Positions 1-64,000 of a DNA stretch of 64,000 nucleotides are shown here, in pieces. Positions within the stretch are counted from its first letter, which is position 1. Each line of letters begins with the position of its first letter. Position numbers and translations under genes: made by a program. This DNA is from Bilabrum cf. latius (taxonomy: Eukaryota), in NCBI GenBank assembly GCA_965178125.1, contig OZ237741.1, forward strand, positions 496,001 to 560,000, given 5' to 3'. The notes under the pieces are model-generated. The model saw nothing but the letters and a program-made list of their open reading frames with translations. It had not been told where the DNA came from and did no database searches.

Positions 1-248
1 CGGGCGGTTCGAGGATGCGGCGGATGCCTCTCGGGGTTCAGGATGCCTCTCGGCGCCACGACAGGGCTGTCTCCGGCGTCAAGCAGAGCCTAGCGCTGCT
101 CCTCCATATCCTACTCATGACCACAGAAAGACCCATCGGCATGCACGTGCGCATGTACCGACGCGAACGAGGCGAATGCAGCAATTACTGAAGCTAGCGT
201 CAGCATCGCTCTCTGCGTCCATCTCGTGAACAGGTCAAAAAGGGACAT
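1..248 (-). CDS. 5' part of a secreted protein (signal peptide, H..CGH motif reminiscent of a metalloprotease propeptide); runs off the window
   Basis: ATG at 248; MSLFDLFTRWTQRAMLTLASVIAAFASFASVHAHVHADGSFCGHE*DMEEQR*ALL...; open to base 1 if two TAGs are sense. Confidence 0.45.
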
Positions 249-1612
249 ATTATAGATACACAGGCCCATTATGACTAATCAATTGTTAAACGTGACTAAA
301 ATCGCAAGATCGCAGGCCGTTGCAATCTCAAAGCAAGAGCTGGGAGCCTGGTTCTGTGCAAGCGAGCACCACGGCATGATTCACGGTACACAGGCACGGG
401 CAGGTGTTTCTCGAATCCCAGACCGACCAGAAATGAACTTACAGATAGTAAGATGCGTGCTGTGGGACAGCTAGCCAGCAGAATTGATTATTGCCGTGCT
501 TGAGGCACTCAAGTTTTTGACGACCCGCCTGTTGAATGGTTGTACGAACTGTATTACAGCGGTTGCAACTGAGATGCAAAACAGCACGTAACCCACTCGC
601 GACTGCACGGTGCAGTGAGCAGTCTGCACCGCTTGCACCGCGGAAGTTCAACTCGAAACGCATCGTCTCAGTGAATCAAGCAGTTGGGACCTTAAAGCTG
701 CGTCTTCAGGGCCAGCCACTGGCGTCGATTACGGCAACCTCGCAGCGACCATGCAAGACCCTCAGCAGGACTCCGAGCCGCTCAGCCCCGCCATTGACGA
801 GATTGAACCCGCTGCCTGGGCGCTGATCATCGCCGCCGGGAGCGGTAGCGGCACCGTGCTGTCCGAGATGCGAGCAGGCCTGCAGCAGACTGCAGGCATC
901 AGCATGGACTACGTCGAGGACGGCAGGGGAAGAGCGCGGGGAAGGGTGCAGCGGTGGCCATTGCCCAGCCCCAGCCCCAGTCCGACTTCGAGCCCGAGCC
1001 CCACGGCCAGCAGCAGCATGCTGCCGCCGAGAGCGAGCAGAGCCCCGACCTCGCCTCGCCCTCGCCCTCGCCGCAATAAGGTCCTTGTCATATTTGCAGT
1101 CTCGTCAATAGTGATGAGCAACGGCTGGTGATTAATTCGGAGCAATACAAATCTATACATTTGAATGCACTGTGTTCAAGTGCCTTAACCAGGTTTCGCG
1201 GGCTTGCAATGTCCGGATCATCAGGGCAGCCCCATACTATAGTAGTAGCGGGGTCCTGAACAGGCTGGTCGCTTGCACAGTGTCGTGCACTCTGGCGATC
1301 TGCAGCAATCGCGAGGTTCAAAGCAAGCCGTAGAACACTCTAGTCGGAGGTCCTGCTTCGCATGAATTTGCCCAAAAGAGCAGCAGTGGGTTGGATGGTC
1401 GTGCGACCACGCCCGCTGTGTGCGACCCTCGAGTTGCCTGATGAGGGTCGGCTCCGATTCCACTGATCCGGTCCACGCTTGTAGCTTGCAAGCGCCATTC
1501 CTATCCCCTCATAGTTGTCGACGCACTCCTAGTGAAAACACTAATCACTGCTTGCACGCGCGGTCGTCGGTGATTGGCTCTGCAAAGCTGGCAGTGCAAG
1601 GTTCGGTTGAGC

Positions 1613-4600
1613 ATGAAGTCCGTTTCATGCGCGTTGCTTTGTCTGGGCATCGGGTTTGTGTTGGCCCAGGACAGCTGCACAGTATCTACTAGTAGTGTGG
1701 CATAGCTAGTGGTGACCGAAGCACGAATGTAGCAGTGTTTCGAAGCAATGCATAGGAATTACACCTCTTGGTCACAGTCCGCAGAAGCAATTGTGGCAAC
1801 CGCAAGCCAGCACGCATATATGGACCTGTAGCGGCAATCAGGGCCCCCATTCGTGTATAAGCTGTAGACGCTTAGGAGCCTACGAGCACTTGCATGTGCT
1901 GCTCGAGTGCTGGACGGTTCTGCCAGCGCTGCGTAGAGGCAATTCGCGCTAGATAATGGCGGGCTCTGTCGACAAGACTCATCTGCTTCACTCTAGCCTG
2001 GCCTCCCAACTCAATGCATTGATGCAACAACCTCGACTTTCCAGTTCTATGACGCTCTCTCGCGGGTGATTCAGCGCCTCGATGACGCGCACGCATCGGT
2101 TACCAAGCCGGCTTGCTTCGCGTTCCTGGCGTTTGTCCCTGCTCGCGCCACGCCGTTTCACGACGGCGAAACAGGAGAATTACGCATGTTTCTATCCCGC
2201 TACTCGACGTTTACGGAATCGCTGGCGCCCTAGCTGCTGTCGTACGTGCCTGCAGCGGCACCTCTGCCAGCCAGCGCAGGCACCTGGTAGTTCTACGAGA
2301 TCGCGGAGATAAACAATCAGTCGGCAGCAAGCTATGTCCTAGACCTCGTCGAGAGAGAATCCAGACCCCTCTCGGGATACGCGCACGACCGCGCCTCTCG
2401 GGTTTCAAACGCCGTGCAGGGGGGGAGTGCCTTCCTGCGGGACCTCAGGTTTGAGTCCATGCCATCGCCCAACGACAGCACCATGCATCTGGGACTCAGG
2501 CGGTGTCAGGGACCTGAAAGCATCGTAAGGAATGCCATCGGATCCAGCGGTTCCGCAGGCGACGGGCAGGCACCGCTCGACCAGAACAGCTTTCGGATCG
2601 GAGTCTAGTCCGGTGTGTCATGTGACGAGGAGGGTGCACAGCTGCAGCATGTGTCCGTTGAGTTCGTGTACTTGTTTACGGGCCAAGACATGCCTGCTGA
2701 TGTGACGGACTTGGACTCGATGTGCGCGGCGGGAGCGCCCTCCTCTGGGTTGGAACCAGCTCGAGTAGGAGCAGCGGAGAGCGGGGGCAGTGCCTTGCCT
2801 GCGAGCGGCAGCGACGATCGCGCGCAAGCTGCCACCAACTCGAGCGGCAGCCCGTCGCAGAGACAGCAGCCAAGCCTGCAGGGTAGCAAGAAGTGGTTGA
2901 GGCGGATTTCCATGGCGGCTCGCGAGCTGCAAGCCACAAGGGTCGCGTGTAGGCTGGACAGCAGCTGCCGGGGCGCGGTCTCAGCATCCTTGGCGGGGCG
3001 GGGGAGGAGACAGAGGAGGCACGCGACTGAGCTGGAGTGGCTGGTGGGAGGACGAGACGCGGCCCGTAGGACAGCACAACGGGTGCTGAGCAGACTGGAA
3101 GAAGCAGCTGCGTCGGCGCATCGGCAGGACTCAACGCGTGCAGAAAGGCGAGCTGCTCTATTGGACGACGCCGAGGATCCACCCGTTTCGGAATACGGCA
3201 TCGATGAGCTCCACGAGCTCTCCAGGATCCTCTCAGGGAGGGCCCCGCGCCACCCGGGAAGCTCGATGCTCCCAGCCGTGGTGAGGCGCATGAAGGCTGG
3301 GGCGACTCTTCGCGTCTCTGCTCTCCAAGCGAGGCAGCTGCAGCGCCGGGCAGGCAGGTCTGCAGGCATGCGCAGGCTCCAGTCGGAGTCGGAGTCGCCA
3401 AGCAGCAGCAGCAGCGGCGTGTCAGGAGGGCGCATCGATGTGCTTCGGAGCTTCAACGAGGACGATGGGCTGGGCGTGTACATGGTCACGCTTGAGATCC
3501 TCCCCCCCGCGCTGGCTGCGGTTTCGTCTCCTCTGCAGCAGCGGATCATCGTGCTGGATCTGACCACCTTCCTACCTGCAGGGGTGCTCGAGTGCCTGAA
3601 CGAAGAGTCGCTCCCGCAGGGGCAGACTGCCGACGAGTGCTTCAACAGCTTCATCGCAGGCTTCATCGCGGACGGTCCAAACCGCGCCCTCACAGAGATG
3701 GAGGAACAAGGGGCCGATGCGATCCTGGTAGATCTCTCCTCCAACGGCGGCGGGCTCATCGCACTCGCTCAGGCCACCGCCATTGCCCTGACACCCGTGC
3801 TGGGGAACAACCCCGCCCTCGCCGTGACCACCGTCGAGCTGCGGCCAACCGAGCTTCTGACGCTCGCGGCCAAGCGGTTTGAGGAGCAATCGGTGTCCAG
3901 CGATGACCTGGAGCACTTCCCCGGCGCTGGTCTCACAGACCCGTCCGACACGTCGCTAGCAGCATCCGAGGGCCAGCACGGATGGGGCTTCCTCTACGAT
4001 AACGAGGCTGGCACGAGGCTCCCAACTCGACGGCACGGGGGCTAGGGCTACAAGATGACCGTCCCTGTGTTTCCCGTGCCCCCAGCGGCCGCGGCTTCGC
4101 TGGCAGCGGACGAGGACGGCTTCATCCGGTATCCCGTGGTTCTAGACAGGTCGACTCTAACAGCTGTGACCGACGGCATGTGCGGGTCTGCATGCTCGCA
4201 GTTCCTCAGGGTGCTCAAGGACAACGGGCTAGCCACTGTGCTAGGGGGCAGTCCGGGGCGGCAGCTGTCTCTGTCATCGTCCTCGGCGTTCTGCGGAGGA
4301 TTCGTGACCTCTTCCGCCATTGCCGACACGATCGCGTGGCTGGAGGAGGCGGAAGAGGTGGCCGGGTTTGATCCCGGGACCGCTCTGTCGCAGGCGGGAG
4401 TGCCTTCCTTCGCTGACGACCCGGAATCAGGAGTCGTGTTCTCCATTGTGGCTCCGAATTCCACGCTGGAGCTGGGCATCACGATCGGAAGCTCGCTGAG
4501 CCCCTCGAGGCCAGCGTGGCCCATCCAATTCGATCCCGCGATTCCCGACGGGCAGGACGAGACTCCGTACTTGAATTCGCTGGCGGAACCGTTCGCCGCG

Positions 4601-5152
4601 CTTCGTATGGTAGCTAGCGCGGCCGAAACGCAGCCGGCGGGCGGCATGGGTGGGGCTGCTCGATTGCTGTGGGCGAGCGCTGGGATCGCCATGGAGGAGG
4701 CCCAGGCGGCGGGGAGGCAGGGTGGCATCGGTGATGCAGCGAGGGAGGATCGGCTGCAGGTGTGGGTGGTCGTCCTGGCGATCATGGTGGTGCTGCTGGG
4801 AATGGCAGTGATGTGGCTTGCGTGCGCGGCATGCACTGCTGGCCGCGCAGGTGTGGATCACCAAGCACTACCAACAGCCGGAGCAGCAGCTGGAGCAGGA
4901 GAAGGAGAAGGAGGAGAAGGAGGAGAAGGCAATCGATCGCAGGGAGTGCCGGTCGATGCGGGTCACCATCGCTAGGGGCATGGACATAATGGCAAGGGCA
5001 ATGGCAGTGAGGGTGTGGGGACGACGTCAGGCGCTAGTGGGCCAAGGCAGCCTCAGGTGGCTCCTTAGGGTGGCTACAGTGCCGGGCCACGCGGAGCATC
5101 AGGTGCTTCATCCACGGGCGGCGGTCGCAGCAAGCCTGCAGCATATGTTTGA
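1613..5152 (+). CDS. Secreted/membrane-anchored peptidase S41-family protein (~1179 aa)
   Basis: One frame from ATG 1613 (signal peptide MKSVSCALLCLGIGFVLAQ) to TGA 5150-5152 with ~12 in-frame TAG and no TAA/TGA. Motifs FYDALSRVIQRLDDAH, LVDLSSNGGG, VTDGMCGSACSQF; C-terminal TM helix. Joins track ORFs 2414, 2615 and 4055. Confidence 0.8.
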
Positions 5153-5339: not shown

Positions 5340-7717
5340 ATGGCAGCAGCAGCCGGTAGCGGATCCGAGGTTGACGTGAAGAGTATCCCCACTGCTCCGG
5401 AAGCGGTACTTAAGTCGCTTGAACTGGAGCGTTGGGGGGTAAAGGTTGGCGCTGCGCGGGTGTTCCACAATCTGAATCATGCACAGATTCGCGCGATTAT
5501 GAAGGACAGAAAGGAAGCCGTGGCCATCGATAATGGAACAATGGTTGTAGATACCGGTGAGAAGTGCCTTTTTACATCCTGTACTTCAGATTGGCCCGAT
5601 ATACGTGCCCGCACCTTGTCGATTGATCCCTGATGGGTGCTCGATGTGGCGGTCAAATCACGACCGTTCTTTCTTAGGCGGATGCTAGATTCAGCTTAAT
5701 CATTAACTTTCATACTGCAGCCCCATTCTGCGGTCGAAGCCCCACGGATAGGTGAGTTGTATGCCTGAGCATTTATATCGTCCTGCTACATAGGAAGCAG
5801 GCAGATCCAAATGGCAGAGTGCGGGTATTTGGACGCCAATACACATCGCATTGGTTCAAGATGTGTCTTGGCAGTCATCCTGAGACAGTGTCGCACTTCC
5901 ACGTGGCTGCGCCCAGCTGCGTTATAATCGCTTTTGATTGGCGCAACGATAGTTTCGCCGAGTTTCTGTTAGCGCGAGATGGCCGATGGTATTGCAGGTT
6001 TTTGCCCCAATACGATGTGGTCAACAACTTTTGGCTTGTGTCCGCACGCCTAAAGCTCGCGCCTTGTCGCCTGCATCGTTCCTGCACACGTGTATCGATC
6101 GACCTGCCTCGGCATGACAACGCATCCGGTGATCTGCCCATCCTTTGCTCTGTAACGGCTCTCGCGCAAGTCCATTGATTTCACCGACGCGATCGCAGAT
6201 TCTGGGTAAAAGAAGGCCCCTCCGCGGAGCACATTGACTGGGGGAGCATCAACCAGCCCATCGAGCGGAGCAACTTTGACGCGCTGCACAAGCTCTCGCG
6301 CGAGTACCTGTCCAAGTCAGGCACGCTGTTCGTCTTTGACGGCTTCGTTGGCGCTTCTGAGGCCTCTCGCATCCATGTGCGGGTGGTGACCGAGCTCGTG
6401 TGGCAGCACCACTTCGTCACTAACATGTTCCGGCCGCCGTCGACGCCCGAGGCAGCTGCCGAGCTGGCCGCCGCCAAGCCGGACCTCGTCATCCTCAACT
6501 CGTGCGGCGTGACCGATCCGGACTGGAAATCCCACGGCCTCAACTCGGAGGTCTTCGTGGCCGTGCACGCCGACGAGGGCCTGGCCGTGATCGGGGGAAC
6601 AAGCTACGGGGGTGAGATGAAGAAGGGGGCCTTCTCCCTGATGAACCTTCGCTGCCCCCTCAAGGGGGTCCTCACCATGCACTGCTCGGCCAACAAGGAC
6701 CCGGAATCGGGGAACACGGCCCTGTTCTTCGGCCTCTCCGGCACGGGCAAGACCACCCTCTCGGCGGACCCCAAGCGCCTCCTCATCGGCGACGACGAGC
6801 ACGGCTGGGACGAGCACGGGATCTGGAACCTGGAGGGCGGCTGCTACGCCAAGACGCTCAACTTGGACCCGGAGGCCGAGCCCGACATCTACAACGCGAT
6901 CAAGCCTCCCGGGGCACTCCTGGAGAACATCAAGATCAACGAGGACGGCAGCCCCGACTACGCCGACGGGAGCAAGACCCAGAACGGGAGGGTCTCCTAT
7001 CCCCTGAACCACATCCGGAACGTGGACCCGGAATCGAAAGGCGAGCACCCCAGCGTGATTGTGTTCCTCACCTGCGACGCCACTGGCGTGCTCCCCCCCG
7101 TCAGCAAGCTCACGGCGGGACAGGCCCAGTACCACTTCCTGTCGGGGTACACGGCCAAGGTGGCCGGCACTGAGAGGGGCATCAAGGAGCCGGTTGCAAC
7201 CTTCTCGCACTGCTTCGGGGCGGCGTTCATGCCCCTGCACGCGACGGATTACGCTAAGCTCCTGGCCGAGAAGATGGAGAAGCACGGGGCCAAGGCCTAC
7301 CTGATCAACACGGGGTGGTCCGGGGGTGCCTACGGCGTGGGGCACCGGATGAAGATCAAGGTGACGAGGGCGTGCGTGGACGCCGTGCTCAACGGATCTA
7401 TTGAGAAGGCTCCCACAACAACGTTCCCCATCTTTGGGCTGCAGGTCCCCACCGAGCTGCCCGGTGTGGAGGGCAAGGTCCTGGACCCAAAGAGCACCTG
7501 GGCCGACGGTGCCGCCTTCGATGAGCAGCTGGCCAAGCTCGCCCTCAAGTTCAAGGAGAACTACAAGCAGTACCTCCGCGAGGACGTGCCCGATTTCTCC
7601 ATGCACGGGCCCCAGCTCGAGTCTGAGGGCGGCGTGGCGGGCGCGGGCAAGCCTGTGGATGGCGCCAAAGGAGGCATGCCGTCGGCGGGCGCTGCTACCG
7701 GCGGCGCGGGCCAGTGA
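5340..7717 (+). CDS. pckA: Phosphoenolpyruvate carboxykinase (ATP); exons 5340-5556, 5721-5751, 6199-7717
   Basis: Motifs GRSPTDR (across exons), YGGEMKK, MHCSAN, FFGLSGTGKTTLS, LIGDDEHGW, EGGCYAK. GT-AG introns keep phase; ends TGA TGA. Confidence 0.95.
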
Positions 7718-15043: not shown

Positions 15044-16999
15044 TCAGCCATCGTCGCCCATGGCCTTCTTCATGTTCTCGAGGTCCCGCAAGGACTTTTG
15101 GATCTCCTCTCGCTTTCTCTCCAAGCCGCTTCCGAGCTCGCGCACTTCAGCCGCGATCCGGTGATGCTCGGCGGCGACGCTCACCCCGCCGAGCACCACG
15201 TCGTTGGGCGTGCTCTGCGCGAGGCCGCTGGCAGCGCCGTCCTCCACGGGCGGCTGTGGCGCAGCCTTGGTGGGCGCCGGCGGAGGGGACTCGACGGCCA
15301 GATCTCCTGCAGCCCCTCCCCCCTGCCCCTCCCCGCCCCCGTTGCTCTCCTGCCCTGCCTCCCCCCCACCCAGCTTGGGAGCCAGGGCAGGTGCTCCGAT
15401 CGAGTCGGCCACCGCGCCCATGTCGTTTCCGATGGACCGCACCATTGCCTGCATCTCTCGAACGAACTTGTCCGCGTCCTCCTGTGACAGCGCAGGGCCG
15501 CCATCGGCAGCCGCGGCCGCGGCTGCGGCCGCGCTCGAGTCGGTTGCTTGGCTCCGTGACCCTGTTTGGCCTTGGTTCTGGCCCTGCTGCTGGGAGGCAG
15601 CGGACACTGCATTCGGCGCAGCGTTGCTGCCATCGGTGCCAGCACCGGCACTGGAAGAGGCGTTTCCCGCTGGCTTGTTGCTGCTGCTGGCGGCCGTCGA
15701 AGAGGCCGACTTGTTGGTTGCAACCGGCGCCGAGCTGCGGGGCGGCGGGGGTTGTCCTTGCGCGGCGGCGGCCGTGCCCTTGTCCGTGCCCGCCTTCGAT
15801 CCACTCATGCCGGCTGCACCGCCACTCGCGGCGCTTGTTCCCTGGCCTCCTTGCTTCGGCTGCTCCTCGCGCGGGATGTACCCGGCTCCGCTTCTGCGGG
15901 CAGAGGCCAGAGCCGCAGCTGCCTCGCCTCTGGCAGCTGCAGCCGCCGCCAGCTGCTGCGTAATTCTCTCGCGCTTCTGCGCGGCGACTTGGAGGTCCTT
16001 CTGTGCCTGCTGGGCCTGCTGCCTGACGTGGTTTGCAACCAGCCGCAGCCTGGACACGGACTGCCTGCTTTTCCTGAGCGTCTTCGAGAAGGCGGTGTGC
16101 AGCCCCAGCGCATTTTGCGCGCTGAGTTTGCCCCTCAGTCGCGTGGCCTCCATGACGAGCGTCTCCCTGTCCTCGGCAGACTGCCTTAGGGAAGCCTCCT
16201 CCTCCTCGGACGCCTTGATGCTGCGGCGGGCGGAATCGATGTGCTCCTGGAGCTCCTTTTCCCTCGACTAGGAGGAGGACTGAAGGTCCGTAAGGACCTT
16301 GAGCGTGTTTTTCTCGAGCTCCGCTGCGGTCTTTCGTTCCTTCTCCGCTTCTTCGCGGAGCTTCTGCAGCTCTTGCCGGAGACTGGCGGTCTGCTCCTCG
16401 GCAGCCTCTGCCTCTGCCTCGGCCTTGCGCCGCTCCTCGGCTGCCGCGCGCGCGCGCTCCGCGACCGCGTCCTTCTTCTTCTGCGCGTCTTCGGCGGCGG
16501 CACGGGCGGAGTCGCGGCGGCCCGCCGCGGCCACGAGGGCTGCCATGGCCGCCTAGTTCGAGGCCTGGACCGCTCCGACCGAGGCGGTCAGCTCCTCAAG
16601 AACCTGCCTGCGCTCCTGCAGCAGCTCGGCAACGGTTTGGCCCTGCTCTGCAGCAGCCGTTTGGGCGGCCGTGAATGGGCTCAGTGCATCGGCTGCGCCG
16701 CCCTTGCTGCTCGTCTGGGCTGGGGAGGCCGAGGCGTCAGGTGGGTGGCTTCCAGGTTCGTCCACGCTCTGTCGCGCCGTGTGAGAGGCTCCCGGAGGAG
16801 AAGCAAAGTGATCGGCTGTTTTCTACGGCGCAGACCGCTTGCGGGCTTCTGCTTCGCGGGCGCGAGCTGCCGCGAGGGCGGCTCGTCTTGCTTCGCCAGC
16901 TCGAGCAGCGGCGTCGTCTCTCGGTGCAGCAGGAGGCTTCCCTGCCGGCGAGTCTTTCCTCCTCTCGATTCGTTGCAAAAAATCAGCAGCAGATGCCAT
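15044..16999 (-). CDS. Low-complexity coiled-coil protein of unknown function
   Basis: Track ORFs 16823, 16553, 16268 and 15044 are in one frame joined by TAG; A/E/K/Q-rich heptads; TGA stop. Start MASAADFL inferred. Confidence 0.7.
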
Positions 17000-17880
17000 C
17001 CTTATCTTCTGCTCAAGACCTGCGCGGTGGAGACGAATGAAGCAAGTGTAGCAAGCACCGATGCCATCTCCCTCGCTACCGACAACGACGAGGGCAAGCC
17101 TCTGCATAGGTAATGCAAAGACTATACGCGACGTGCGAGCGAGGACGGGGCAGGACAACAAGTAAACACCAAGGATCTCTTCAAGATCGCCGGAGCAGAC
17201 CCGAACGGACCGCGCCTCACAACGATTTCTTGCGCGTTGAAGGTCTCGTGCACCTGAGTGATGAAGTCCAATGAACTTTTATACTACCAGAGACTTCAAC
17301 AGCACAACCACTCAGCCGGCCCTCTTCAGAATGGTGGCTCCGCACCGGGTCCAAGGCGGCTGCGCCAACACTTGGAGTGGTCGCAAGTGCTTCGTGCGTG
17401 CTTTTGCCAAGAACAGATACAAAGGCTGGTGGTGCGTTGCTGCTTATTGATGGGTGAATGTAGTATGTGACTGCTTGGTTGCGCCGACTGCGCGACAAGA
17501 CCACAAGACTGGAACGGTCTAGTCGCGTCTACGATGACTTAGGCGTCTGCATGTCAAGGTTCGCTTGGGACGCGCTAAACACAGAGTGGCTTGTTTTTCA
17601 TGTTGTAAGGACCGATTCGTGGCCTTTTCGCGAGCTGCGGTGTTGAGGTGGAGTGTCCCACCCGACGTGCCAAAACACGCCCCACTTGCGGCGACGGCAC
17701 CAATCATGCTGTCATTCGCATTCGTTGGTACTAGCATATGAACCACTACGGCATAGACTGCGGGGTGGGAAGAGCAGGGTGCAAAAAGAACGGATGTGGG
17801 GCGGGCAGTAGCCAGAGAACTAAGCAGAATCACCTATCTCGGTTCACAAGCGTGCACTCATACAATAAATCGATCTTTTT

Positions 17881-19218: not shown

Positions 19219-19443
19219 GCAATGCTACGTTTCTATCAATTGCCATGTCGTCCTGGTGTGTGCGTGCTCTCACCGTTTAGGACGTCCTCCCCCAAGCCAA
19301 AGTGACTTTCAATAATCGTGGCCTTTATCTGTGCTTCATGTTGCATGCGAAGTATGAAAACAGCGCAAAGCTGGTCTTGATATCGACAAGACCCGGAATT
19401 CGTGGCCAGAATACAAGCCCCGTACCGTTCACAACGAGCACGA

Positions 19444-42400: not shown

Positions 42401-42648
42401 GAGGCTGGTGTCGCCGGCCTGAACGAAAATGATGCGCTGCGCGACAGCCTACGCTTGCCTGTCCCGTGGCTACTAGCTGGCAGTTCACCTGAATCCGGCT
42501 ACAATGCCCCGCTAGCCGTACCAACCTGCTCTGACGATGAGTTCGATCGAGCCGAGTGTGCGCTTGCGGGGGACTCCGAGTTGGATTGCCTGGACGGTGG
42601 CAGCGGCCCCATGTTGGAGGGATCATAGTATGATTGCTATTCAGCCAT
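39409..42648 (-). CDS. Hypothetical ~1080 aa protein
   Basis: Track ORFs 41623, 40933, 39883 and 39586 are in one frame joined by TAG; ATG at 42648, TGA at 39409; no family recognised. Confidence 0.6.
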
Positions 42649-42870
42649 GTTTATGCGCTGGACCAACGAGCGAAGTGAAGTTCTGGAGCAAGCAATCATT
42701 GAATTCAGCTCTGGCTTCAATTTAACCAAATGTGCACGCCACAAATCGTGCAAGTGGCCAAATCGCTCCATCGGATCTTGTGTGCCAACACATGAACACT
42801 CATGGGTTCGAAATGAATGGTTTCTTGTTCTTCCACAACCGAGCTCTGGCCCTACCCCACCGTAGAGTCA

Positions 42871-46906: not shown

Positions 46907-49198
46907 TCAGACGGCGTCCCAGATCTCGCAATACAAGTCGATAATGTCTCCCAATCGCATAGGCCTGGGCAGCGTGTAGGTCCGCTGCAACTTAGCCAGC
47001 TCCTCCACGATTTCGTCGATGTCGTCGTCCGATAGCGGCGGGGCGTCGGGTTCCTGCGTCAAGGGTCGGATGAGCCAGGCAGACCGAGTGGCGTGCCAGT
47101 TCAGCAAGCCGGCGTTGAAGAAGCCACCCTTCGTGCCATGCGGGTACCAAGGATCCCTCACGGCCCCGATTGCCTGCTGCGCGAGCTCCAACGATGCAAT
47201 CTTCATCTGCGGGGGCACAACCGTGCTCGGCTTCTTCGCCTTCCCAGCATCGCCACCCTCCCCCGCCTTGTCCCCGTCTGCCACGGGGCTCCCAGGGGCG
47301 ACCCCCTTGGGCGCCCCCGGCGCTGTCGTAACCGCAACGGGCCCTCCCCCGAAGTTGTATCCGTCGTCCGCTTGCTGGGAGGCCAGCTCCACGATCTGCC
47401 CCTGCCCCGTGCCCGTGAAGGATCCCCAAGTACCCCGCATCGTGCGGTAGAAAGCCCTCTCGTCCTCCTCCGCGCTCTCCGCGCCTTTGGCCAGGGCTGC
47501 CGCTTTGGCCATGGTCCAATCGCCCGCCTCCTTCCCGCTGTAGACACCCCCCTTGTGCGCAGCCTCGCTCCCCCCGGCACCCGCACCTGCGCCGCTGCCA
47601 CCCGCCTTGCTCTTCCCAGCGCCCGCGCCCGCGCCGGCCTCCAGCTCTGCGTCGTCCTCGCTATCCGCGTCAGCCACTGCCGCAACCAGCGGCATGCCTC
47701 GCTCGATCCCGGCCAGCGCTGCCAGCATGAGCTGCCTCACCATGCGCCGGTCGCCCGCAGGCTCGATGGCCGGCCTCGCCAGGGCGGCGGGAAGGACCGG
47801 AAGCACGGGGGAGAGGCCGTCTCCGTGCTCCGTCCAGAACTTCACCAAGTCGTCCCTGAAGTACTTGGCTGGCGTGCCCGCTGCAGCAGCGTCCCCATCG
47901 TTCCCTTCTCCAGACTCGGCCGGCTTGGCACCGATGGCTGGCTCGATGGCACGCGCTGCCACCACGACGGGGTCCTGGGGCTCTAGCTTCACGCAGCAGA
48001 TGGCGTGCAGGGGCGTGTGCACCAGCACCGGCCCGCTATCAAACCCGTCTCCCCCGAGCGAGTGGTCGCACAGCTCTTCCACCACGTGCTCCATGAGCTC
48101 GGCGTCCTGCTGGGCGAGCTGCTGGACGTCCACACCCAGCACGAGGCCAAGGGCCCTGGCAGCGTCCACCGAAAGCTCCTCCCCCACCGAATCCGTGATG
48201 TCCACCTGGCTGTCCACGCGCTCCACCCAGGGAACAGCCATGCCTTGGTCGCAAATCTCCCTGGCCAGGGGCACCCCCCCTGGCTCCAAGTCGCTGGGGT
48301 GCACACGGTGCCCGTTCCGCTCGTACAGGACCGCATGGAGCCTGGCTCTAAGGTCAAACACGCCAGACGCGGCGTTCCGAAACAAGAGCATGGTGCCCCG
48401 TGGCCTTGTCAGGCTGAGCAGGAGCTGCGCGCAGCTGAGCTCCTGCGCCTTCCTGAGCGGCCCCGGCTGCCACGTCTCAGCTGCCACTTTGAGCGCGGGC
48501 GCACTTGCTCCGTTGCCCGCTTTCTCGGCATCTTTCTAATCGCCCTTAGGACCACCCCCTCCCTCCCCGCTATCGTCTTCTTCCCCGGTCGCGGCGTCGG
48601 GCACGAAGCACCTCGACAGACGCCAGAGCGACGAGTGCACGAGGTCGAACCGACCCAGCGCGCTGGCAGGGTCACCCCCTGGAGAGGCGGAGGAAGAGGG
48701 CGCCGCGTCTCCGGCCCGCGAGCCGGTAGCGCTCGAATCCGCTCCTTCAGATCCAGGCGACCCCCAGTCCTCCGGCAGCTCCGGCAGCTTGCCGTCCCAG
48801 CTCTCAAACGCCTTTTGCACTACGACCACGCAGTCTGCCAAATCTGGATTCTTCTGCATCATTTTCTGATAAATCCGGGCTCCACTCACGACTACGTATC
48901 GCAGGTTGGGCCGACGCGACCTGAGTAGCCGAGCAATCTTGGCATCGTACTCGGGGCTGCCATTTTCAATCGCCAACACCCACAGGGGGTCTCCGCCATC
49001 CTTCATCTGCTGTACCTTGGACCTAAACCATTCCAGCTGAGCATAGTAGGCTGCGGAGCGACGAAAAGCATGAAAATCTATCCACGACATGAGCGACAAG
49101 CACGCAATGACCGCAGTTGCAACAAGCAGTGCCCCCCCCAACACATGGCCGCGTGCGATACAAGACGGACATTTGCAGGAGCACATCGTCCATACCAT
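46907..49198 (-). CDS. Protein with N-terminal TM and C-terminal DUF4050/Gag1-like clamp domain
   Basis: FFNAGLLNWHATRSAW...LPRPMRLGDIIDLYCEIW; track ORFs 48536 and 46907 are joined by one TAG; TGA stop. Confidence 0.7.
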
Positions 49199-49520
49199 GG
49201 TGATAGATAGTATGATGCCTGCAACTACGGTGCTCAGGCAACATTAAGTCATGCGGACGGACGCCGCGGCGAAGTGGCCTGCTCACATGATACTTGCAAA
49301 TTTGTTGACACGGGCACCTCCGGTGGCTTTGGCGGCTCGCCGGGAGAAGGTACAGTAGACATGGACAAAATTAAACCAAACCTTCCAAAAAGGATGTGAT
49401 AAGCACCCTCTTGGAAGCAGTATCTTTGAATTTACAGCGCCGTGATCCACCAATTCGAGACTGGTTTTTGTTTGTAAGGTGTAGTTGCAGTCGCAACAAT
49501 AAATTTATCACAATTGCTCC

Positions 49521-50421
49521 ATGTTTTAGACTATGATTGGCGTTCTGTTCGCATCCTTCCTATTTGCTGTAAATGGATAGAGCGATGAGCGCAAAGCTGT
49601 CGAAGAACCGTCCAGGTTTGAGCTTGTTGTGCGTCACGCTGTCGCCGGCTCGTTTTATGATAGGGCAACTGGCGACCTGCGCAAATCCAGTGCGGGCTGG
49701 ACCGCGTCAATTGGCAAAGCTAGCTTAGATGTTGCGCAGCTGGAGCAGCTGGCAGCGGCTGTGTAGCATGGAGGCTATTATCGCACTGAAGCTTTCGTCC
49801 GAGACAGGAACACCGGCGAAACACTGTCGCCAACAGTCCGGGGCTCGACAAGCGCGGTGAGACGAGATTATATGCTTGTACGGCACTCGTAAGTACTGAA
49901 TGCCTGCCGGCAGCCATCTACTGCTCCTCTGCCTACTTTGCGACGCACCTCACTTGCCGCAGTGCCTCCTCGCGGCATCGGATTTCTAGCACGAGCTGGG
50001 CATTCACGTGGTAGAGGGAGACTTGCAGGCTGTGGAGGTACGGCTTCCCAAGCAGGCCGGGGAGGTGGTGTGCGATGAATCGGTACGCACTAGGCTGTCG
50101 GGGCTGCTCCGCAAAGCGGCTGCCGCAGGAAAATCCGCCCCGCTCGGGAACAAGATCAAGGTTTACGAGCCGAAAGAAGGAAGAACTCTGAAGATTGCGG
50201 AGCCAGGGGCAGCGCAGGCCTATCTTGGGCAGAAGGCACACGCAGCCGCTGCCAAGGAGGACGGGCGGGAGCTGACGGACGAAGAGAAGGCAAAGCAGCA
50301 GCCCCAGGGATTGATGGCATACGCGCCATACGTTATGCCAGCCCTGGTGATCTACATGTGCCTCTCCAGATTTACTGATGATGCCAGCGGTGGAAAGGGT
50401 GGCAAGCCTGCAGCAAAATAA
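49521..50421 (+). CDS. EMC10: ER membrane protein complex subunit 10-like; intron 49857-49962
   Basis: Signal peptide, LVVRHAV..FYDRA, GGYYRT, GSTSA|CLLAASDF*HELGIHV, C-terminal TM YAPYVMPALVIYM; four TAG; TAA stop. Confidence 0.7.
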
Positions 50422-50537: not shown

Positions 50538-50824
50538 TCAGCCTCTTCTTGGCGGCTTGGCCCTGCTTATTCGAACTTCCTTGAACACCACGTGTCTTCG
50601 CACAATGGGGTCATATTTCTTGAAGGCTAACTTGTGCTAGATGGAGGTAGGATTCTTCCTAGACACGTAGAAGAAACTGCGGTGAGCAAACACTAGTGTG
50701 CAGTATTGGAAGTGGTAGTTGCCCTGATTGCCTGAACGGGTCCATCCAGCCCGCCAGCCGCTCACCCAGTGTTGGCAGTAGATACAAGCTTAATCATGAG
50801 CTTCTTGACCTTAGATTTCGCCAT
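50538..50824 (-). CDS. MRPL33: Mitochondrial ribosomal protein bL33m; intron 50677-50765
   Basis: MAKSKVKKLMIKLVSTANTG|FFYVSRKNPTSI*HKLAFKKYDPIVRRHVVFKE; TAG at 50637-50639 mid-domain; TGA stop. Confidence 0.9.
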
Positions 50825-50898
50825 GACGTGGCGAATGCGGGACGGCTGCAGCGCATTTGTCTGGTCTGGTATTCGCAACAGAAACAACTCCTTACTAT

Positions 50899-51622
50899 AT
50901 GCTCTTGACGCGACTGGCGACACCGGGCGAGCAACCCAGTCGCCAGCGACCGCGATTCGACCGGGACAAACAGCAAAACTTGTCAAACATAGAAGTAGCC
51001 AGACCACGCGTGGTGGCATGCCAGTTGACACAGCCAGGAGAGGCCCTGATGCACGGCCACCACCAGAAGCCACTGAGGCACGAAGGCCTGGCCCCTCTTC
51101 ATCGATTTCACCCAGCTGGCTTCAGTAGCGTACATCCACAGTATCCTGCCAGCGACTGATCGACTCGATCGACCCGTTCGGGGTGAATGACAGCGGCGCC
51201 ATGTAGCTGAAATCGTGAGCCTTAATCCGGTCAGGTGCGCTCTACCACCTGTCCCCGAACAGCACCCAGTCACTCCCAGTGTGCCAAATAGTGCCCGTCT
51301 GTGCCATCCAAATACTGGATCCATTCCCTGGGTATCTAGCGATCTGACCCCTGTACTCGTAGTCCCCCATCGGAGACTCAGACGTGTACACCTCCACGCC
51401 CGTGCCGGCACCGCAGAAACAGCAGCACTGCCCGATTATGACGTAGTACAGCCCCCCACGCTTGAACATAGCGACTCCTTCTAGGTTCCCAGGTCCGATG
51501 GTTGGAGACACGGCGGCAGGAGCTGCTGGTCCTAGCAGGTCCGGGGTCAGCTTCTGGACGTGATTCACGTGAGTCGTCTCGTGGGTGAACGCGACGTACC
51601 CTCCCCATCATCGTCTGCAAAG
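50899..51622 (-). pseudogene. Displaced, truncated copy of the GH43 gene 3' end plus downstream region (partner 61451-62090)
   Basis: Direct repeat; FADDDGE/YVAF carries a 1-nt frameshift near 51600; no 5' half recognisable. Confidence 0.8.
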
Positions 51623-52587: not shown

Positions 52588-55218
52588 ATGCCTTCAACGT
52601 TTGGCGCGAAGGCATGCCTGTGAGGATAACGATTGGACTGTGAATCGCGCGCAGCGGCGTACACCCGTCTTATCTCGCGCACCTGACAGCATTGCTAGGC
52701 AAAGCCATGCATCAAAACCGTATGTTGTGAATCCTCTCTATTTGCTTGTCGCAGCATCCTTGCGGCGGCCATGGTGGCTGCCCCAACTGCATTCGCTGCG
52801 AGCGGGTCCAACGCGTCTCTAGCTCGAAGGCCGGACCTCGAAACGGCTGTGGCAGCAGAGCGCTCTTTGATGCAAGTGCTGAGTACGACAGTAGCTAACT
52901 TTACTGTCAAATCTCACCAGAAGATCTCCAATACGGAAGGCGGCTTCACCGGCGAGCTGATCAGTGGTGACGAGTTCGGATCTTCCGTGGCATCCCTGGG
53001 CGACCTGGACGGAGATGGCACCACCGACCTCGCAGTGGGGGCAGCCTACCATGGTGATGGATTCATCAACCGCGGGGCAACTTGGATCCTCTTCTTGAAC
53101 ACCAACGGCACCGTCAAGTCTCACCAGAAGATCTCCAATACGGAAGGCGGCTTCACCGGCGAGCTGGACAGAACTGACTACTTCGGATCTTCCGTGGCAT
53201 CCCTGGGCGACCTGGACGGAGATGGCACCACCGCCCTCGCAGTGGGGGCAATGGGTGGTGGTGATGGAGGGCCTATGCGCGGGGCAACTTGGATCCTCTT
53301 CTTGAACACCAACGGCACCGTCAAGTCCCACCAGAAGATCTCCAATACGGAAGGCGGCTTCACCGGCGAGCTGGACGATTATGACTAGTTCGGATCTTCC
53401 GTGGCATCCCTGGGCGACCTGGACGGAGATGGCACCACCGCCCTCGCAGTGGGGGCACGCCAAGATGATGATGCGTAGAGTGCCAGCGGGGCAACTTGGA
53501 TCCTCTTCTTGAACACCAACGGCACCGTCAAGTCCCACCAGAAGATCTCCAATACGGAAGGCGGCTTCACCGGCGAGCTGGACAGAAATGACTACTTCGG
53601 ATCTTCCGTGGCATCCCTGGGCGACCTGGATGGAGATGGCACCACCGCCCTCGCAGTGGGGGCAATCGGTGATATTGATGGTGGAAACAATATGCGCGGG
53701 GCAACTTGGATCCTCTTCTTGAACACCAACGGCACCGTCAAGTCCCACCAGAAGATCTCCAATACGGAAGGCGGCTTCACCGGCGAGCTGGACGATTATG
53801 ACTAGTTCGGATCTTCCGTGGCATCCCTGGGCGACCTGGATGGAGATGGCACCACCGACCTCGCAGTGGGGGCAACTCGAGATGATGATGGACGGGACGA
53901 TCGCGGGGCAACTTGGATCCTCTTCTTGAACACCAACGGCACCGTCAAGTCCCACCAGAAGATCTCCAATACGGAAGGCGGCTTCACCGGCGAGCTGGAC
54001 GATTATGACTACTTCGGATCTTCCGTGGCATCCCTGGGCGACCTGGATGGAGATGGCACCACCGCCCTCGCAGTGGGGGCACGCCAAGATAATGATGGGG
54101 GGGATAAGAGTGGGGCTACTTGGATCCTGTTTAATGACGTAGTATTGCCGTCGCCGTCGCCGTCGCCCACCCCAAGCAGCAGTCCGACCCCGAGTAGCAG
54201 CCCCAGCACCTCGCCCACGCCGAGCACCACCAGCAGTCCCAGCACCTCGCCCACGCCGAGCACCACAAGCAGTCCCAGCACCTCGCCCACGCCGAGCACC
54301 ACAAGCAGTCCCAGCACCTCGCCCACGCCGAGCACCACCAGCAGTCCCAGCACCTCGCCCACGCCGAGCATCGCCAGCACCGATAGTGTCACGGGATTGA
54401 CATGCAGTGACGGCGAGACCAACTTCCAGGAGACCGATATTGACTGCGGGGACGCGTCTGCTGGTGACTGTCCCTTGTGCTCCCAGGGCAGGACCTGCAT
54501 TGTCACAGCCAACTGCGCAAGTGGACTCGTGTGCTCGGCCAGCAGCAACACGTGCACTGCTCCTATGAGGCCCAGGGGCAGGCGCATCACGGTGTCCAGG
54601 ACCAAGGTGTCGAGCGTGACCACGCCCATCTTCCAGTCGAACCTTCTGGCTCCCTTCGTCACGGCGATCGGGGATGTCGCCAGAAGTGATGATGTAGTCA
54701 TCGACCGGCTGACCACGTCTTCGACCAGCAGGGGCCGCTCCCTTCAGGCCTCGGGCTCAGAGGAAAATGGCGTTTCCGCCACCGAGCTGGACTTCACCGT
54801 AACAATTCCGCTGGAGCGCACCGACGTGGATCAGACGAGGCAGGACATCCTGGCCTTCCTGCGGGGCATTATGACCACGTCCGAAGATGATACGCTGGTG
54901 GAGGTGCTCAGAATGGCTGCGCCCGCCGAGATGGCCCCGCTACTGGCGGTTGATACGACCAGTATTGCCGTGGAGGTCACTGTACAAGAAGAGGACCTGC
55001 AAGTGGAGGAGGCTGTAGCTCCTTCTACGGACGAAGATGACGACGAGGGAGGGGCCAGCATGGTCATCATCATCGTGGTGGTGGTCGTCGTCATTGCCGT
55101 CATTGTGGGAGCAGTCACCTACTTCTTCAAGTGCAGGAACACCAAGCCAGGGATTGCCAAGAAGGACGACAAGGCGGTCGATGCGAAGGAAGAGCATCAG
55201 GTAGCCGAGGCCGTGTGA
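52588..55218 (+). CDS. Type I membrane protein: FG-GAP (integrin-alpha-like) repeats, PST stalk, Cys-rich module, TM; intron 52620-52754
   Basis: Spliced signal peptide MPSTFGAKACL|ILAAAMVAA; six FGSSVASLGDLDGDG..LAVGA repeats of 207/210 bp; three in-frame TAG; ETDIDCG module; TGA stop. Confidence 0.85.
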
Positions 55219-55503: not shown

Positions 55504-57311
55504 ATGCGCAACAGTTTCAAAATATCCATGCACCGGACTAGAAAGAGAAAGCGAGCGGCCCCAGCAGACCGTCTAGGTCGAGTTGTTCGATCAACTCGCC
55601 TGGGGAAAGCGTGGGAGGATGCCAACGTGCTTGCACACAGTATCAGGACGGCGCTGCACGAAGAAGTTCAAACGGTGTGCGATGCCAAAGCGATTAGTGC
55701 ACCTGTTTCAGACAAAGCACTGCCCGGTTTTCTTGAGGGTGAAAAGTATAGAGACTTTGCATGGCAATTCTGCAAAACTTGGAGGGAAAAATCTATTTCG
55801 GGGACGAACTGGGGGGTGCAGGCACGGCTTCGTGAGATGGCTGCGACTTCCGCGGATAGCATAGTACCGAACCCTTCGACCCTGTACAGGTGGAGAGACA
55901 AATTCAATGAGGCACGGCTTTATGGATATTGTGAGGTGGGGACAAGGAAGCTTTGTTGGCCAGCTGAGGTTCTGTTCGCGGAAACTGTACGACGCCGTGC
56001 AGTTGCACGTCAATCTATGACAATGCGGGAGCGTGGTCAAACACTGGAACGTTTGCTCGTCTGATGCAGGAGGTAGGTGAATCTGTATTGGCTACCCGAA
56101 GAAGGCTTGCCAAGGCCGCTCGCGATGCGAAGGACGAGGCCAGAGCTCTGAAGATCGAGGACCCGAGCAAGTGCCCCGCCGTGCTGATCATGGACAACCT
56201 CGGCATCCACTGCACTGAGATAGCAAAGCGAGTTGCTAAGAAGTACGGAATAAGGCTTGTGTTCCTTCCCGCAGGACTGACTGACCAGATGCAGGTGCTT
56301 GATACGCACATCTTTGCGGCCTTCAAGCGTAAGCTCAGGGCGAGTGTGCGCTCCTTCCAGCGAGCTCTGCGCAAGGTCAACACGAGGAGGATCCGCAAGC
56401 TACAGGCCAAGTACCAAGGTGCTCCAGTTCCAGAGAGTGAAAAGCCTCCTCGAGTGAATCTTGACGAGTCGCTAGCCCCAGCCATCGTGTACGAGGCCTG
56501 CCACGGCGCAATCCTGAACAGCACCAACGCGAGCAAGGGGTTCGAGGACAACGGCCAGTTCCCGCTTGACCCGACCAAGCTGATCAGCCCTGCAGACTGG
56601 ATCCACCTACAGGAGAAAAAGGTGCTGCCGACCCAGGCAGACAGGCTTATTTCTCCAATTCTTTTGCTTGCAAGACGAGAGGCCGGGGCGCAAGCGGCGG
56701 AGGGGGTGGATGTCCTGTCTGCCGATGACATTGTTGGATCCTCGACAGTGCTGAGCGCAGCCGCGTCATCCAGCAGCAGCAGCAGCAGCAGCAGCAGTGC
56801 AGCGGCAGAAGAAGCAGCAGAAAGTGCGTCTGAATTGACGAGCCCCTTTGCTCAAGCTATACTTGGGCTGGAAGTCGACACAGATGATGAGACAGATGAG
56901 GATGAGGACCGACCATCTCAGGCGAAGAGGCCCCGCAGTGGAACTGGAGCCGTCGTTGATCGAATCGTAGGTGGGACTGTGGCAAAGGAAGTCATGCCAA
57001 TCATGGAGAAGGAGATGCTATCCTAGCCGGTGCCTGCATCTGTGGTAGATACCAGGAACAGGTAGGGTGGCTTTGTTGGGGGGGTTCGAGAGCGGCTGCT
57101 ACAGCACCGCGCATTGGCCCCTGGGACGATGCGCTCCGCCTTGGCAAAGGCAGAGACGAAGGCGAAAGCTCTACAGACTGGAGTTACGTTTCTTGAGGCA
57201 TATGTGTCTGCCTACATGGGTGCAGATGCGGCTGCGCCGATCCTCGCGCAGGCACGCCAAGCCATGGACGACATTGATGGAGGCGATCGGGTGAAGGAGG
57301 GAAGACAATGA
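55504..57311 (+). mobile_element. Defective pogo/Tc5-like DDE_1 transposase
   Basis: HTH-like PSTLYRWRDK; frame change at 56064; VLIMDNLGIH..LVFLPAGLTDQMQVLD..FAAFK. First catalytic Asp region not seen; TIRs not identified. Confidence 0.7.
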
Positions 57312-62090: not shown

Positions 62091-62553
62091 CCCCCCCGCT
62101 ACGGTAATAAATAAATTTATTCCCTTCGGTTAAGGATGATTAACATCATCAATAGTTCCAGTCCATCAGAGCTAAAGCTCTTCAGTCCGTTCCACTCCTT
62201 TTGGAGCTAGTCGCTCCAAAAGTCAAGGTGAGCCTCTTCATACTGCTACTTCATATAACTGCTTTATCCTTCTAATTATATAAAATCAATTATATATAAA
62301 ACTCTATACGATGACCATATCCATACTTTGGGTATATATTATAGTAAGTTCTAATCAAAACGTGGATGTAGCCCTCTTGTGAAGGTGTTCTGGGACTCTA
62401 GCCATTTTCTAGCCAAAAGTTCCATCACTTTATGGGACTCCATTATTCAACCTTCTAAACTACCTTCATTATACCCCCTTATCCTCGCTTATACCTTCAC
62501 AAATGGAACAAACGCGCTTTTATTTTTAAATTGTTATAGAGCGTTTAAATTGA

Positions 62554-62587
62554 CTTAAAAAATATATTTATTATAGGTATATACAGA
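62554..62587 (+). promoter_or_regulatory. Conserved upstream motif of the element's genes (second copy 63663-63696)
   Basis: CTTAAA(A/T)AATATATTTATTATAGGTATATACAGA directly precedes both ATGs, 33/34 identical. Confidence 0.55.
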
Positions 62588-63607
62588 ATGGAATTATTAA
62601 AATGGGAAAATGGAACCTTGAAAGCTACACAACCAAAAGAATATTATGAACGAAATGGATTTTAGGTTAATTTTGAAGGGAAAACCTATCATATAGCAAT
62701 GGATAAAGATTATATAAGATGGTTTTTGAAGGACTATAAACCTTATGAAATAATAACAACATTCATAACAGATATGAGTGAAGTATTCAATGGATAGGAT
62801 AAATTTAATGAACCTTTGAATACTTGGGATGTTTCAAATGTTAAGGATATGAGTTTAATGTTTCAAAGTTGTAGAAGCTTTAATCAACCATTGAGCAATT
62901 GGGATGTTTCTAAGGTTGAAAAAATGTCGTCTATGTTCTATTTTTGTTCTAAATTCAATCAATCATTGAACGATTGGAATGTTAGTAATGTTAGGGATAT
63001 GAGTGGTATGTTTGGTTCTTGTTCAAGATTCAATCAACCATTGGATAATTGGGATGTTTCTAAGGTTGAAAATATGTCCTCTATGTTTAATGGATGTTGG
63101 AACTTCAATCAACCATTGGATAATTGGGATGTTTCTAACGTTGAAAATATGTCCTCTATGTTCCATTATTCTGAATTCAATCAATCATTGAACGATTGGA
63201 ATGTTAGTAATGTTAGGGATATGAGTGGTATGTTTGGTTCTTGTTCAAGATTCAATCAACCATTGGGTAATTGGGATGTTTCTAACGTTGAATATATATC
63301 CTCTATGTTTAATGGATGTTAGAACTTCAATCAACCATTGGATAATTGGGATGTTTCCAATGTCTAGAGTAAGTTTTAGATGTTAAAAGATTGTGAAAGT
63401 TTCAATCATTTAGAGAACGGTATTAAGGGTATAAGAATTGATTATTCTACAACATTGATACCGTTGTTAGAAAGACGAAAACATAAAACCATTAAAAAAA
63501 CAAAGAAATATAGAGAGGAATTAATTGCTAAAGCGTGGCACCCTTCAAGATTAGATTGGGTATTGGATAACGAGGAGCGAGACGAGATAGAGGATAATTT
63601 TAATTAA
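62588..63607 (+). CDS. DUF285/BspA-like leucine-rich-repeat protein (339 aa)
   Basis: Repeats FNQPLDNWDVSNVENMSSMF; five in-frame TAG (62663, 62795, 63320, 63365, 63377); TAA stop; C-terminal REELIAKAWHPSRL. Confidence 0.85.
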
Positions 63608-63696
63608 TAGAATTTTAATAATATTAATGATTATTTAATATTATAGTGTGAGTTTAAAAAGGCTTAAATAATATATTTATTATAGGTATATACAGA

Positions 63697-64000
63697 ATGG
63701 AAGTTTTAAAATGGGAAAATGGAACCTTGAAAGCTACAAAACCAAAAGAATATTATTTTAGAAAAGATAATTATATTGTGAAATTTGAAGGTAAAACATA
63801 TTACGTAGCTAAAGATACAGATTTTCTTCTTCACGCATTGTAGTTTTTGAAACCTGAATTATTAGTAACAACATTTATTACGAATATGTTAAACCTATTT
63901 GATAATATGATAATTGAATCACCAATAAATTCATGGGATGTTTCAAATGTTAAAGATATGACCGATATGTTTTATGGGTGTCATTCGTTTAATCAACCTT
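63697..64000 (+). CDS. Second DUF285/BspA-like paralog (partial)
   Basis: MEVLKWENGTLKATKPKEYY matches the paralog N-terminus; TAG at 63841; INSWDVSNVKDMTDMF. Confidence 0.85.

Follow-up and report, generated by a model that had tools for sequence, protein, structure and literature searches.

The 64-kb stretch of contig OZ237741.1 analyzed here (assembly GCA_965178125.1, Bilabrum cf. latius, positions 496,001 to 560,000; hereafter the window) carries protein-coding genes that are crossed repeatedly by in-frame TAG triplets and that end in TGA or TAA. We consider it quite likely that in this eukaryote UAG has been reassigned from a stop to a sense codon, most probably for glutamine (Gln), with UGA as the main terminator and with UAA not read as sense and most likely still a stop. 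An initial annotation, made from the sequence alone, had proposed that TAG is sense, that it most likely encodes Gln, and that TAA and TGA remain stops. The first proposal is borne out by the statistics of open reading frames, by TAGs inside Pfam domains, by the retention of TAG in spliced contigs, and by the in-frame TAGs of an environmental relative. The second is supported by the residues found at well-aligned sites, by two TAG/CAG pairs, and by scoring against Pfam. As to the third, the role of TGA is clear and TAA is indeed not sense, and a terminator role for TAA rests on three genes.

In-frame TAG codons and gene ends

Its eukaryotic genes and seven short GT..AG introns identify the window as nuclear DNA from an intron-poor eukaryote rich in guanine and cytosine (GC); the GC content of the window is 54-64% over the first 60 kb and 44% in the last 4 kb, and that of the genome is about 58%. 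With the standard code, stop-to-stop frames in the window extend to 645 amino acids (aa) at most, and no frame reaches 800 aa. Reading TAG as sense yields eight frames of at least 800 aa (2537, 1282, 1192, 1167, 1152, 900, 843 and 822 aa), whereas reading either TAA or TGA as sense yields none, even though TGA is the commonest stop triplet. When the stop labels were shuffled within each of the six frames, none of 500 shuffles produced eight frames of at least 800 aa (mean 1.05, maximum 5), and none gave a frame longer than 1322 aa.

Across 14 gene models comprising 12,913 codons, the coding frame contains 85 TAG, 0 TAA and 0 TGA triplets, while the two other frames of the same models hold 97 and 72 TAG, 39 and 64 TAA, and 229 and 245 TGA. 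These counts indicate that the coding frame excludes TAA and TGA but does not avoid TAG. At least one in-frame TAG is present in 16 of 17 gene models, PEPCK alone having none, and TAG makes up about 16% of the Gln codons in the models counted. Furthermore, in-frame TAGs sit within the Pfam matches to L33, Helicase_C, S41 and the FG-GAP repeats. The L33 match (PF00471, E = 4.6e-10) crosses the minus-strand TAG at 50637-50639, just where the initial annotation had placed a TAG inside the domain. Its TAG between a kinase and EF hands is likewise present (35945-35947), and the frame it credited with about 20 TAGs in 7.4 kb holds 23 in 7.6 kb (23772-31385). A TAG thought to interrupt GH28 in mid-domain, however, lies 10 residues before the PF00295 match and thus outside it. 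That TAG is a sense codon in these genes is, in our view, practically certain. The genes and gene fragments concerned are the following.

1613..5152, plus strand: S41-like peptidase gene; 12 in-frame TAG; stop TGA; the PF03572 match spans a TAG
6179..7717, plus strand: ATP-dependent PEPCK; 0 TAG; stop TGA TGA; PF01293 homologues, best 65% identity
8898..12401, minus strand: P-loop-like protein, no Pfam family; 10 in-frame TAG; stop TGA
15044..17002, minus strand: coiled-coil, low-complexity protein, no Pfam family; 3 in-frame TAG; stop TGA
19381..21072, plus strand: divergent eIF4A-like helicase; 5 in-frame TAG, one within Helicase_C (PF00271); stop TGA
21207..23315, plus strand: GT4 glycosyltransferase (PF13692 and PF00534); 3 in-frame TAG; stop TGA
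23772..31385, minus strand: AAA ATPase (PF00004) with C-terminal repeats of about 200 aa, 2537 codons; 23 TAG; ends TAG TGA
31577..34045, plus strand: protein with internal duplication, no Pfam family; 9 in-frame TAG; stop TGA
34904..38752, minus strand: quinone-oxidoreductase-like domain, protein kinase and EF hands in a single frame (PF08240, PF00069, PF13499); TAG at 34922, 35945 and 37361; stop TGA
39409..42867, minus strand: protein, no Pfam family; 9 in-frame TAG, all within X5/X6/X7 contig pieces (see below); stop TGA
42871..44430, minus strand: GH28 polygalacturonase-like gene (PF00295; 18 PDB matches); 3 in-frame TAG; ends TAA TGA
45290..46812, plus strand: protein, no Pfam family; 2 in-frame TAG; stop TGA
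46907..49050, minus strand: protein, no Pfam family; 1 in-frame TAG (48536-48538); stop TGA
49503..50421, plus strand: two-exon gene, intron 49856-49961; 3-4 in-frame TAG; ends TAA, with TGA 3 codons on
50538..50830, minus strand: ribosomal protein L33, two exons, intron 50677-50765; TAG 50637-50639 in the domain; stop TGA
51122..51607, minus strand: GH43-like fragment; TAG in ...GDRW-X-SAPD..., CAG at 51428-51430; weak PF04616 match below cut-off
52687..55218, plus strand: FG-GAP repeat protein (PF01839, PF14312); TAG at 53386, 53476 and 53803 in repeats; stop TGA
55968..57311, plus strand: DDE_1 transposase-like frame, pogo/Tc5-like (PF03184); 2 in-frame TAG; ends TGA TAA
61451..62090, minus strand: second GH43-like copy, 96.4% identical to 50899-51536; TAG 61982-61984 where the first copy has CAG
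62549..63999, plus strand: two tandem DUF285 genes (PF03382); GC 26-30%; in frame, 5 and 1 TAG, 0 TAA, 0 TGA

Fourteen of the 17 gene models end in TGA and three in TAA, as the initial annotation had described, and TGA is clearly the main terminator. If TAA were read like TAG, about 29 in-frame TAA codons would be expected from the ratio of A- to G-ending codons (0.34) for Gln, Glu and Lys; none occurs in the 14 models or in the 888 codons of L001, an environmental relative described below. Eighteen TAAs in the window have at least 100 open codons on both sides, and each of the 15 most open proved on inspection to lie either antisense to the local gene model or out of its reading frame. No gene frames become connected when TAA is treated as sense, whether by itself or together with TAG. 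Because none is found in frame where about 29 are expected, and because no frame is joined, TAA does not behave as a regular sense codon, and a code in which both UAA and UAG (UAR) specify Gln fits poorly. There is little doubt, we believe, that TAA is not sense, and it probably still terminates.

Within 30 codons of gene ends we counted 5 TAGs against 3.3 expected (P = 0.24), which is neither a depletion nor a significant enrichment; those at 23775-23777 in the AAA frame and 34922-34924 in the kinase/EF-hand frame are C-terminal. The idea that TAGs near C-termini are relics of old stops was rejected on the same test. The base that follows TAG resembles the base that follows CAG. Since neither the end-proximal counts nor the following base stands out, we see no sign of a context-dependent dual role. 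The window also differs from the context-dependent type of code (Condylostoma, karyorelicts, Blastocrithidia) in that TGA and TAA never occur in frame and TAG is not depleted near gene ends.

The initial annotation had also pointed to transcripts as a check on whether TAGs are spliced or edited out. Four public sequencing runs were aligned to positions 34000-52000: X1, which is DNA-like, and X5, X6 and X7, which come from two studies. Contigs of X1 are colinear with the window and show no intron joint, whereas contigs of X5, X6 and X7 skip seven segments of 89-236 nucleotides (nt) with GT..AG ends on the gene strand.

36727..36843, minus strand: intron, GT..AG, 117 nt, inside the kinase domain; no joint in X1
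38658-38876, minus strand: intron
38949-39056, minus strand: intron
45154-45289, plus strand: intron
49051-49286, minus strand: intron
49856-49961, plus strand: intron
50677-50765, minus strand: intron

From these intron-less joints we infer that the contigs of X5, X6 and X7 derive from complementary DNA. All 18 TAG codons of the gene models in this region are unchanged and unspliced in the X5-X7 contigs, 7 of them in all three runs (13 in X5, 11 in X6 and 9 in X7, counted from the listed contig pieces only). No intron joint removes a TAG, and the sole base difference, 34993 C>T in X7, lies outside any TAG. The introns of two genes, L33 and the two-exon gene at 49503-50421, join TAG-containing frames in phase. 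Positions 50828-52000, where the first GH43-like fragment lies, have no X5-X7 cover and are uninformative on expression. Because the TAGs are kept in spliced contigs and no joint takes one out, removal by splicing or editing fails as an explanation for the genes of 34000-52000.

The residue at TAG and competing interpretations

Residues facing TAG, in either direction, were tabulated from pairwise alignments with all relatives fetched. The resulting 28 site-relative pairs, from at least 15 sites, comprise Gln 6, Glu 3, Asn 3, His 2, Ser 2, Gly 2 and Pro 2, with Thr, Asp, Arg, Met, Leu, Ala, Tyr and Phe once each. Where local identity is at least 0.6, Gln stands opposite TAG in 5 of 12 pairs (binomial P = 9e-5 for a background of 4.3%). 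At two well-aligned positions, a TAG of L001 corresponds to CAG in the window. Within the window itself, the two GH43-like copies have CAG (51428-51430) and TAG (61982-61984) in the same column of a 638-column duplicate, as the initial annotation had recognized. An amino-acid likelihood calculated from BLOSUM62-derived conditional probabilities, with a flat prior and at three identity thresholds, put the posterior for Gln at 0.99 each time, and restricting every site to a single observation (n=15) or including two PDB columns did not alter this. Glu came next, 7-9 bits behind Gln; Ser, Lys, Arg, His and Asn were at least 10 bits behind (Ser by 12 bits), and Leu was further behind than Ser.

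A Codetta-like test, in which four domain-bearing stretches were scored against Pfam with TAG set to each of 10 residues, gave the following bit scores.

L33: Q 41.1, E 40.7, K 40.9, R 40.2, S 41.0, G 40.0, A 40.6, L 38.8, Y 38.7, W 38.4
Helicase_C: Q 36.8, E 36.7, K 36.6, R 36.8, S 36.4, G 35.5, A 36.1, L 35.8, Y 35.9, W 35.1
FG-GAP_2: Q 58.9, E 58.5, K 58.1, R 58.8, S 54.4, G 54.1, A 53.6, L 54.4, Y 57.3, W 57.2
FG-GAP: Q 108.2, E 108.4, K 109.0, R 108.8, S 107.6, G 107.5, A 107.2, L 107.2, Y 107.1, W 105.9
S41: Q 31.1, E 31.1, K 31.2, R 31.1, S 31.1, G 31.3, A 31.0, L 30.9, Y 31.0, W 30.9

Gln has the top score, alone or tied, for L33 (41.1), Helicase_C (36.8) and FG-GAP_2 (58.9). When scores are summed over L33, Helicase_C, S41 and FG-GAP, Leu, Tyr and Trp fall 4.5-7 bits under Gln, Leu by 4.5. 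The S41 scores hardly vary (30.9-31.3 bits), since the TAG there falls in an insert, and the PDB alignments of GH28 are uninformative because the column opposite its TAG is not conserved. In PDB matches to eIF4A, helicase position X356 stands opposite Lys. In a test for Leu or another hydrophobic residue, Leu, Met and Phe each occurred once in the 28 pairs, and a PDB column added 1 Ile. The sample is small, and given that TAG is sense we regard Gln as the highly likely residue.

The reassignment could have come about through a Gln transfer RNA (tRNA) with anticodon CUA, which would read UAG but not UAA, and it would be completed by an eRF1 that no longer recognizes UAG. This combination is the model proposed for other UAG-only codes in the relevant passages of PMC11687900 and PMC5304391. 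A tRNA scan and an Rfam scan of the 64-kb window returned no tRNA gene and no Rfam family, and general Pfam scans of the window frames returned no eRF1 gene among their matches.

Several observations weigh against the interpretation of UAG as a Gln codon that arose in this way. The tRNA scans of two related loci, L001 and L002, are as empty as that of the window, so that the mechanism is a proposal. Assignment of the residue draws on 15 sites, several in poorly conserved stretches, and in the Pfam scores Lys, Arg and Glu cannot be told apart from Gln, lying within about 1 bit of it. The closest relative (93-97% identity) reads Glu at TAG 288 and Tyr at TAG 845, the two TAG sites at which it differs, helicase position X76 stands opposite a conserved Ile of eIF4A in a weak PDB alignment, paralogous FG-GAP repeats carry Tyr where two repeats have TAG, and paralogous DUF285 repeats carry Trp/Cys. 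In 73 viral homologues of the DUF285 genes, moreover, the TAGs face Ala/Cys, Thr or Ser and not Gln. With regard to transcripts and terminators, the labels of X5-X7 are guessed RNA only (X5 is labeled 'probably DNA'), and two of the three TAA-ended models have a TGA close behind, 0 codons later in GH28 and 3 codons later in the two-exon gene. Many of these points would also suit a code in which TAG is sense for some other residue, be it Glu, Lys, Arg, Tyr, Leu, Ser or Trp, as in other UAG reassignments; indeed, codes with UAG=Leu and UAG=Ser are described in PMC11687900. We nevertheless regard another residue as unlikely, given that Gln is the commonest partner of TAG both overall and at well-aligned sites, that its rivals trail in the likelihood, that Leu, Tyr and Trp lose ground in the summed Pfam scores, and that three TAG/CAG pairs are in hand, two with L001 and one between the GH43-like copies. 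The non-Gln partners (Glu, Tyr, Ile, Trp/Cys) are all single-base neighbors of TAG or occupy variable positions, a pattern to be expected if mutation creates new TAG codons where change is tolerated.

Two further interpretations concern the stop codons themselves. Should UAA and UAG both encode Gln, with TAA merely rare in a GC-rich genome and UGA the sole stop, the TGA triplets just behind two of the three TAA 'stops' would ensure that readthrough changed almost nothing; moreover, UAR=Gln is the commonest variant code (PMC5304391, PMC11687900). The complete lack of in-frame TAA, against some 29 expected, and the failure of TAA to join gene frames render this code distinctly improbable. An even less credible notion, which we give almost no weight, is that TAG is not decoded at all, or is decoded only in some contexts, and that its in-frame occurrences reflect pseudogenes, assembly errors, removal by splicing or editing, or a dual stop/sense role. 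Five genes do have a TAG within 30 codons of their end, where it could still terminate, and the GH43-like fragments and DUF285 genes may be decaying copies. Such explanations must contend with 85 in-frame TAGs against no TAA or TGA, with an independent relative whose TAGs lie at other positions, and with end-proximal counts and following bases that look ordinary; for 34-52 kb they are largely refuted by the 18 TAGs retained in spliced contigs. UAG as a Gln codon, with UGA as the main stop, remains our preferred reading.

Environmental relatives and known codes

A HMMER search with the S41-like protein returned fragments at 58-96% identity, some of them from metagenome contigs. L001, found in a metagenome scan, is a contig of 4709 bp and 58% GC on which an S41-like gene is followed by PEPCK, the same gene pair as in the window. 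Its PEPCK (3363-4709) is 87% identical to that of the window (313 of 358 positions). Its S41-like frame is open over 888 codons with 5 TAG, 0 TAA and 0 TGA and ends in TGA, and the positions of these TAGs differ from those in the S41-like gene of the window. L002, a distant S41 relative (35%), was left out of comparisons. Besides the syntenic locus L001, the relatives aligned with the S41-like gene were P0121-P0123 and P0153. Relatives of the P-loop-like protein (P0154-P0158, 49-87% identity) span 4 TAG sites at a local identity of at least 0.4. Three fragments of the AAA protein from one relative (P0159-P0161, 93-97% identity) stop just before window TAG 833, 964 and 1092, which are the breaks expected from a standard-code gene caller if these TAGs are shared. 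Because L001 and the AAA fragments show the same pattern, we regard the TAG-sense feature as shared by a clade and reject the idea that the window's assembly produced it.

The best PEPCK homologue is an EukProt transcriptome entry, GECG01016700 (65% identity), followed by others at 57-61%, and the search returned no NCBI-named close homologue. In a PEPCK tree, the window and L001 sequences stand beside GECG01016700 (support 0.998), within a clade that includes bacterial PEPCKs (Geothermobacter, Hydrogenimonas) and apart from oomycete and brown-algal sequences. An old gene transfer is possible, to judge from this grouping, and because a single gene with a possible transfer history is involved, the tree does not place the organism.

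Codes of this type are known from a few lineages, as far as the pertinent passages of the cited papers describe them. In the fornicate Iotanema spirale, UAG encodes Gln while UAA and UGA are stops (PMC5304391). The window resembles it in that UAG alone is reassigned, to Gln, in a non-ciliate protist in which UAA is not sense. In Iotanema, however, UAA is the primary terminator and UAG makes up about 8% of Gln codons (PMC5304391), whereas here TGA ends 14 of 17 models and TAG contributes about 16%; in addition, the genome sampled by the window is rich in GC, and its PEPCK falls in a different group. The ciliates Hartmannula sinica, Trochilia petrani and Protocruzia tuzeti also have UAG=Gln with UAA as a stop, and a suppressor tRNA(CUA) is the mechanism proposed for them (PMC11687900). 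They share with the window the reassignment of UAG only, to Gln, but use UAA for 87-98% of their stops (PMC11687900), in contrast to the dominant TGA, 58% GC and spliceosomal introns of 89-236 nt found here.

In Amoeboaphelidium protococcarum, another non-ciliate with a stop-to-Gln reassignment, TAG and TAA both appear to encode Gln (PMC6299283, PMC5304391), whereas TAA never occurs in frame in the window. We considered this organism as a candidate source and rejected it, its GC content being about 40% (PMC10608142, Table 1) against 58% in the window and no NCBI-named close PEPCK match having been returned. UAG has also been uncoupled from UAA where it encodes Leu, in the rhizarian exLh and in phyllopharyngean ciliates, and where it encodes Ser, in Scotinosphaera (PMC5304391, PMC11687900), but in the window Ser and Leu trail Gln in the likelihood and Leu does so in the Pfam scores as well. 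Apart from Iotanema, our literature search turned up no GC-rich non-ciliate for which this code is reported, although supplements may list further UAG-only taxa. We take the present case for a genuine instance of a rare but known code type (UAG=Gln, UAA/UGA stop), probably in a new lineage.

Few codes split UAG from UAA, and those that do put to the test the notion of a mechanistic coupling between the two codons (PMC5304391, PMC11687900). A GC-rich non-ciliate that relies chiefly on UGA as a stop would provide a further, independent case, and its stop-codon economy would differ from that of the UAA-terminating ones. On the practical side, standard-code annotation would fragment nearly every gene of this genome and of its environmental relatives, and public protein fragments from relatives look as if they had been cut in this way, because their breaks coincide with TAG sites of the window.

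Virus-like genes, repeats and other features

GC content drops from about 60900 onward, ahead of the two DUF285 genes. The closest relatives of these genes are 73 loci on IMG/VR contigs, many of them named giant-virus metagenome-assembled genomes (GVMAG), at 41-59% identity. Their other frames hold 10-28 TAA. By sequence, the DUF285 genes appear virus-like and bear the same TAG-tolerant signature as the other genes of the window. We put forward, as a tentative idea that may well prove wrong, that an undescribed protist clade, made up of the window organism and environmental relatives with 50-97% protein identity, in-frame TAGs and the same S41-PEPCK synteny, gave UAG the meaning Gln independently of UAA and kept UGA as its main stop, this uncoupling being an event of its own, and that its virus-like DUF285 genes came under the same code. 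If so, genes derived from nucleocytoviruses would be evolving under, or be adapted to, a variant host code. The occurrence of in-frame TAG in virus-like genes also prompts one to ask how viruses deal with a change in the code of their host.

The second GH43-like copy sits between a microsatellite and the DUF285 genes. Within the 638 columns of the duplicate (50899-51536 versus 61451-62090), 4 mismatches fall in 415 coding columns and 19 in 223 flanking columns. A GDRWQSAPD family motif, which the initial annotation had cited for the position of the TAG, is unconfirmed: the GH43 match is below the Pfam cut-off, no PDB match was obtained, and no relative was found among the genome contigs. The name EMC10, given to the two-exon gene at 49503-50421, is likewise unconfirmed, with neither a Pfam nor a PDB match. 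The DDE_1 transposase at 55968-57311 is apparently a mobile element living under the same code.

At 34904-38752 on the minus strand, the quinone-oxidoreductase-like domain and the kinase/EF-hand part share an uninterrupted frame and spliced contigs of X5, X6 and X7, and would represent either one fused protein or a pair of genes that share a contig. About 250 residues separate its kinase from its EF hands, unlike the arrangement in canonical CDPKs. The C-terminus of the AAA protein (window 23772-27700, minus strand) consists of five near-identical repeats of about 200 aa, each with TAG at the same two or three positions; no SPRY or other Pfam family matches these repeats at E <=0.01. The FG-GAP repeat protein (52687..55218) is encoded by a tandem repeat with a period of 207 nt. 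Finally, positions 60072-60466 form a pure (AGG)n microsatellite of 132 copies (98% match) in which all six frames are open.

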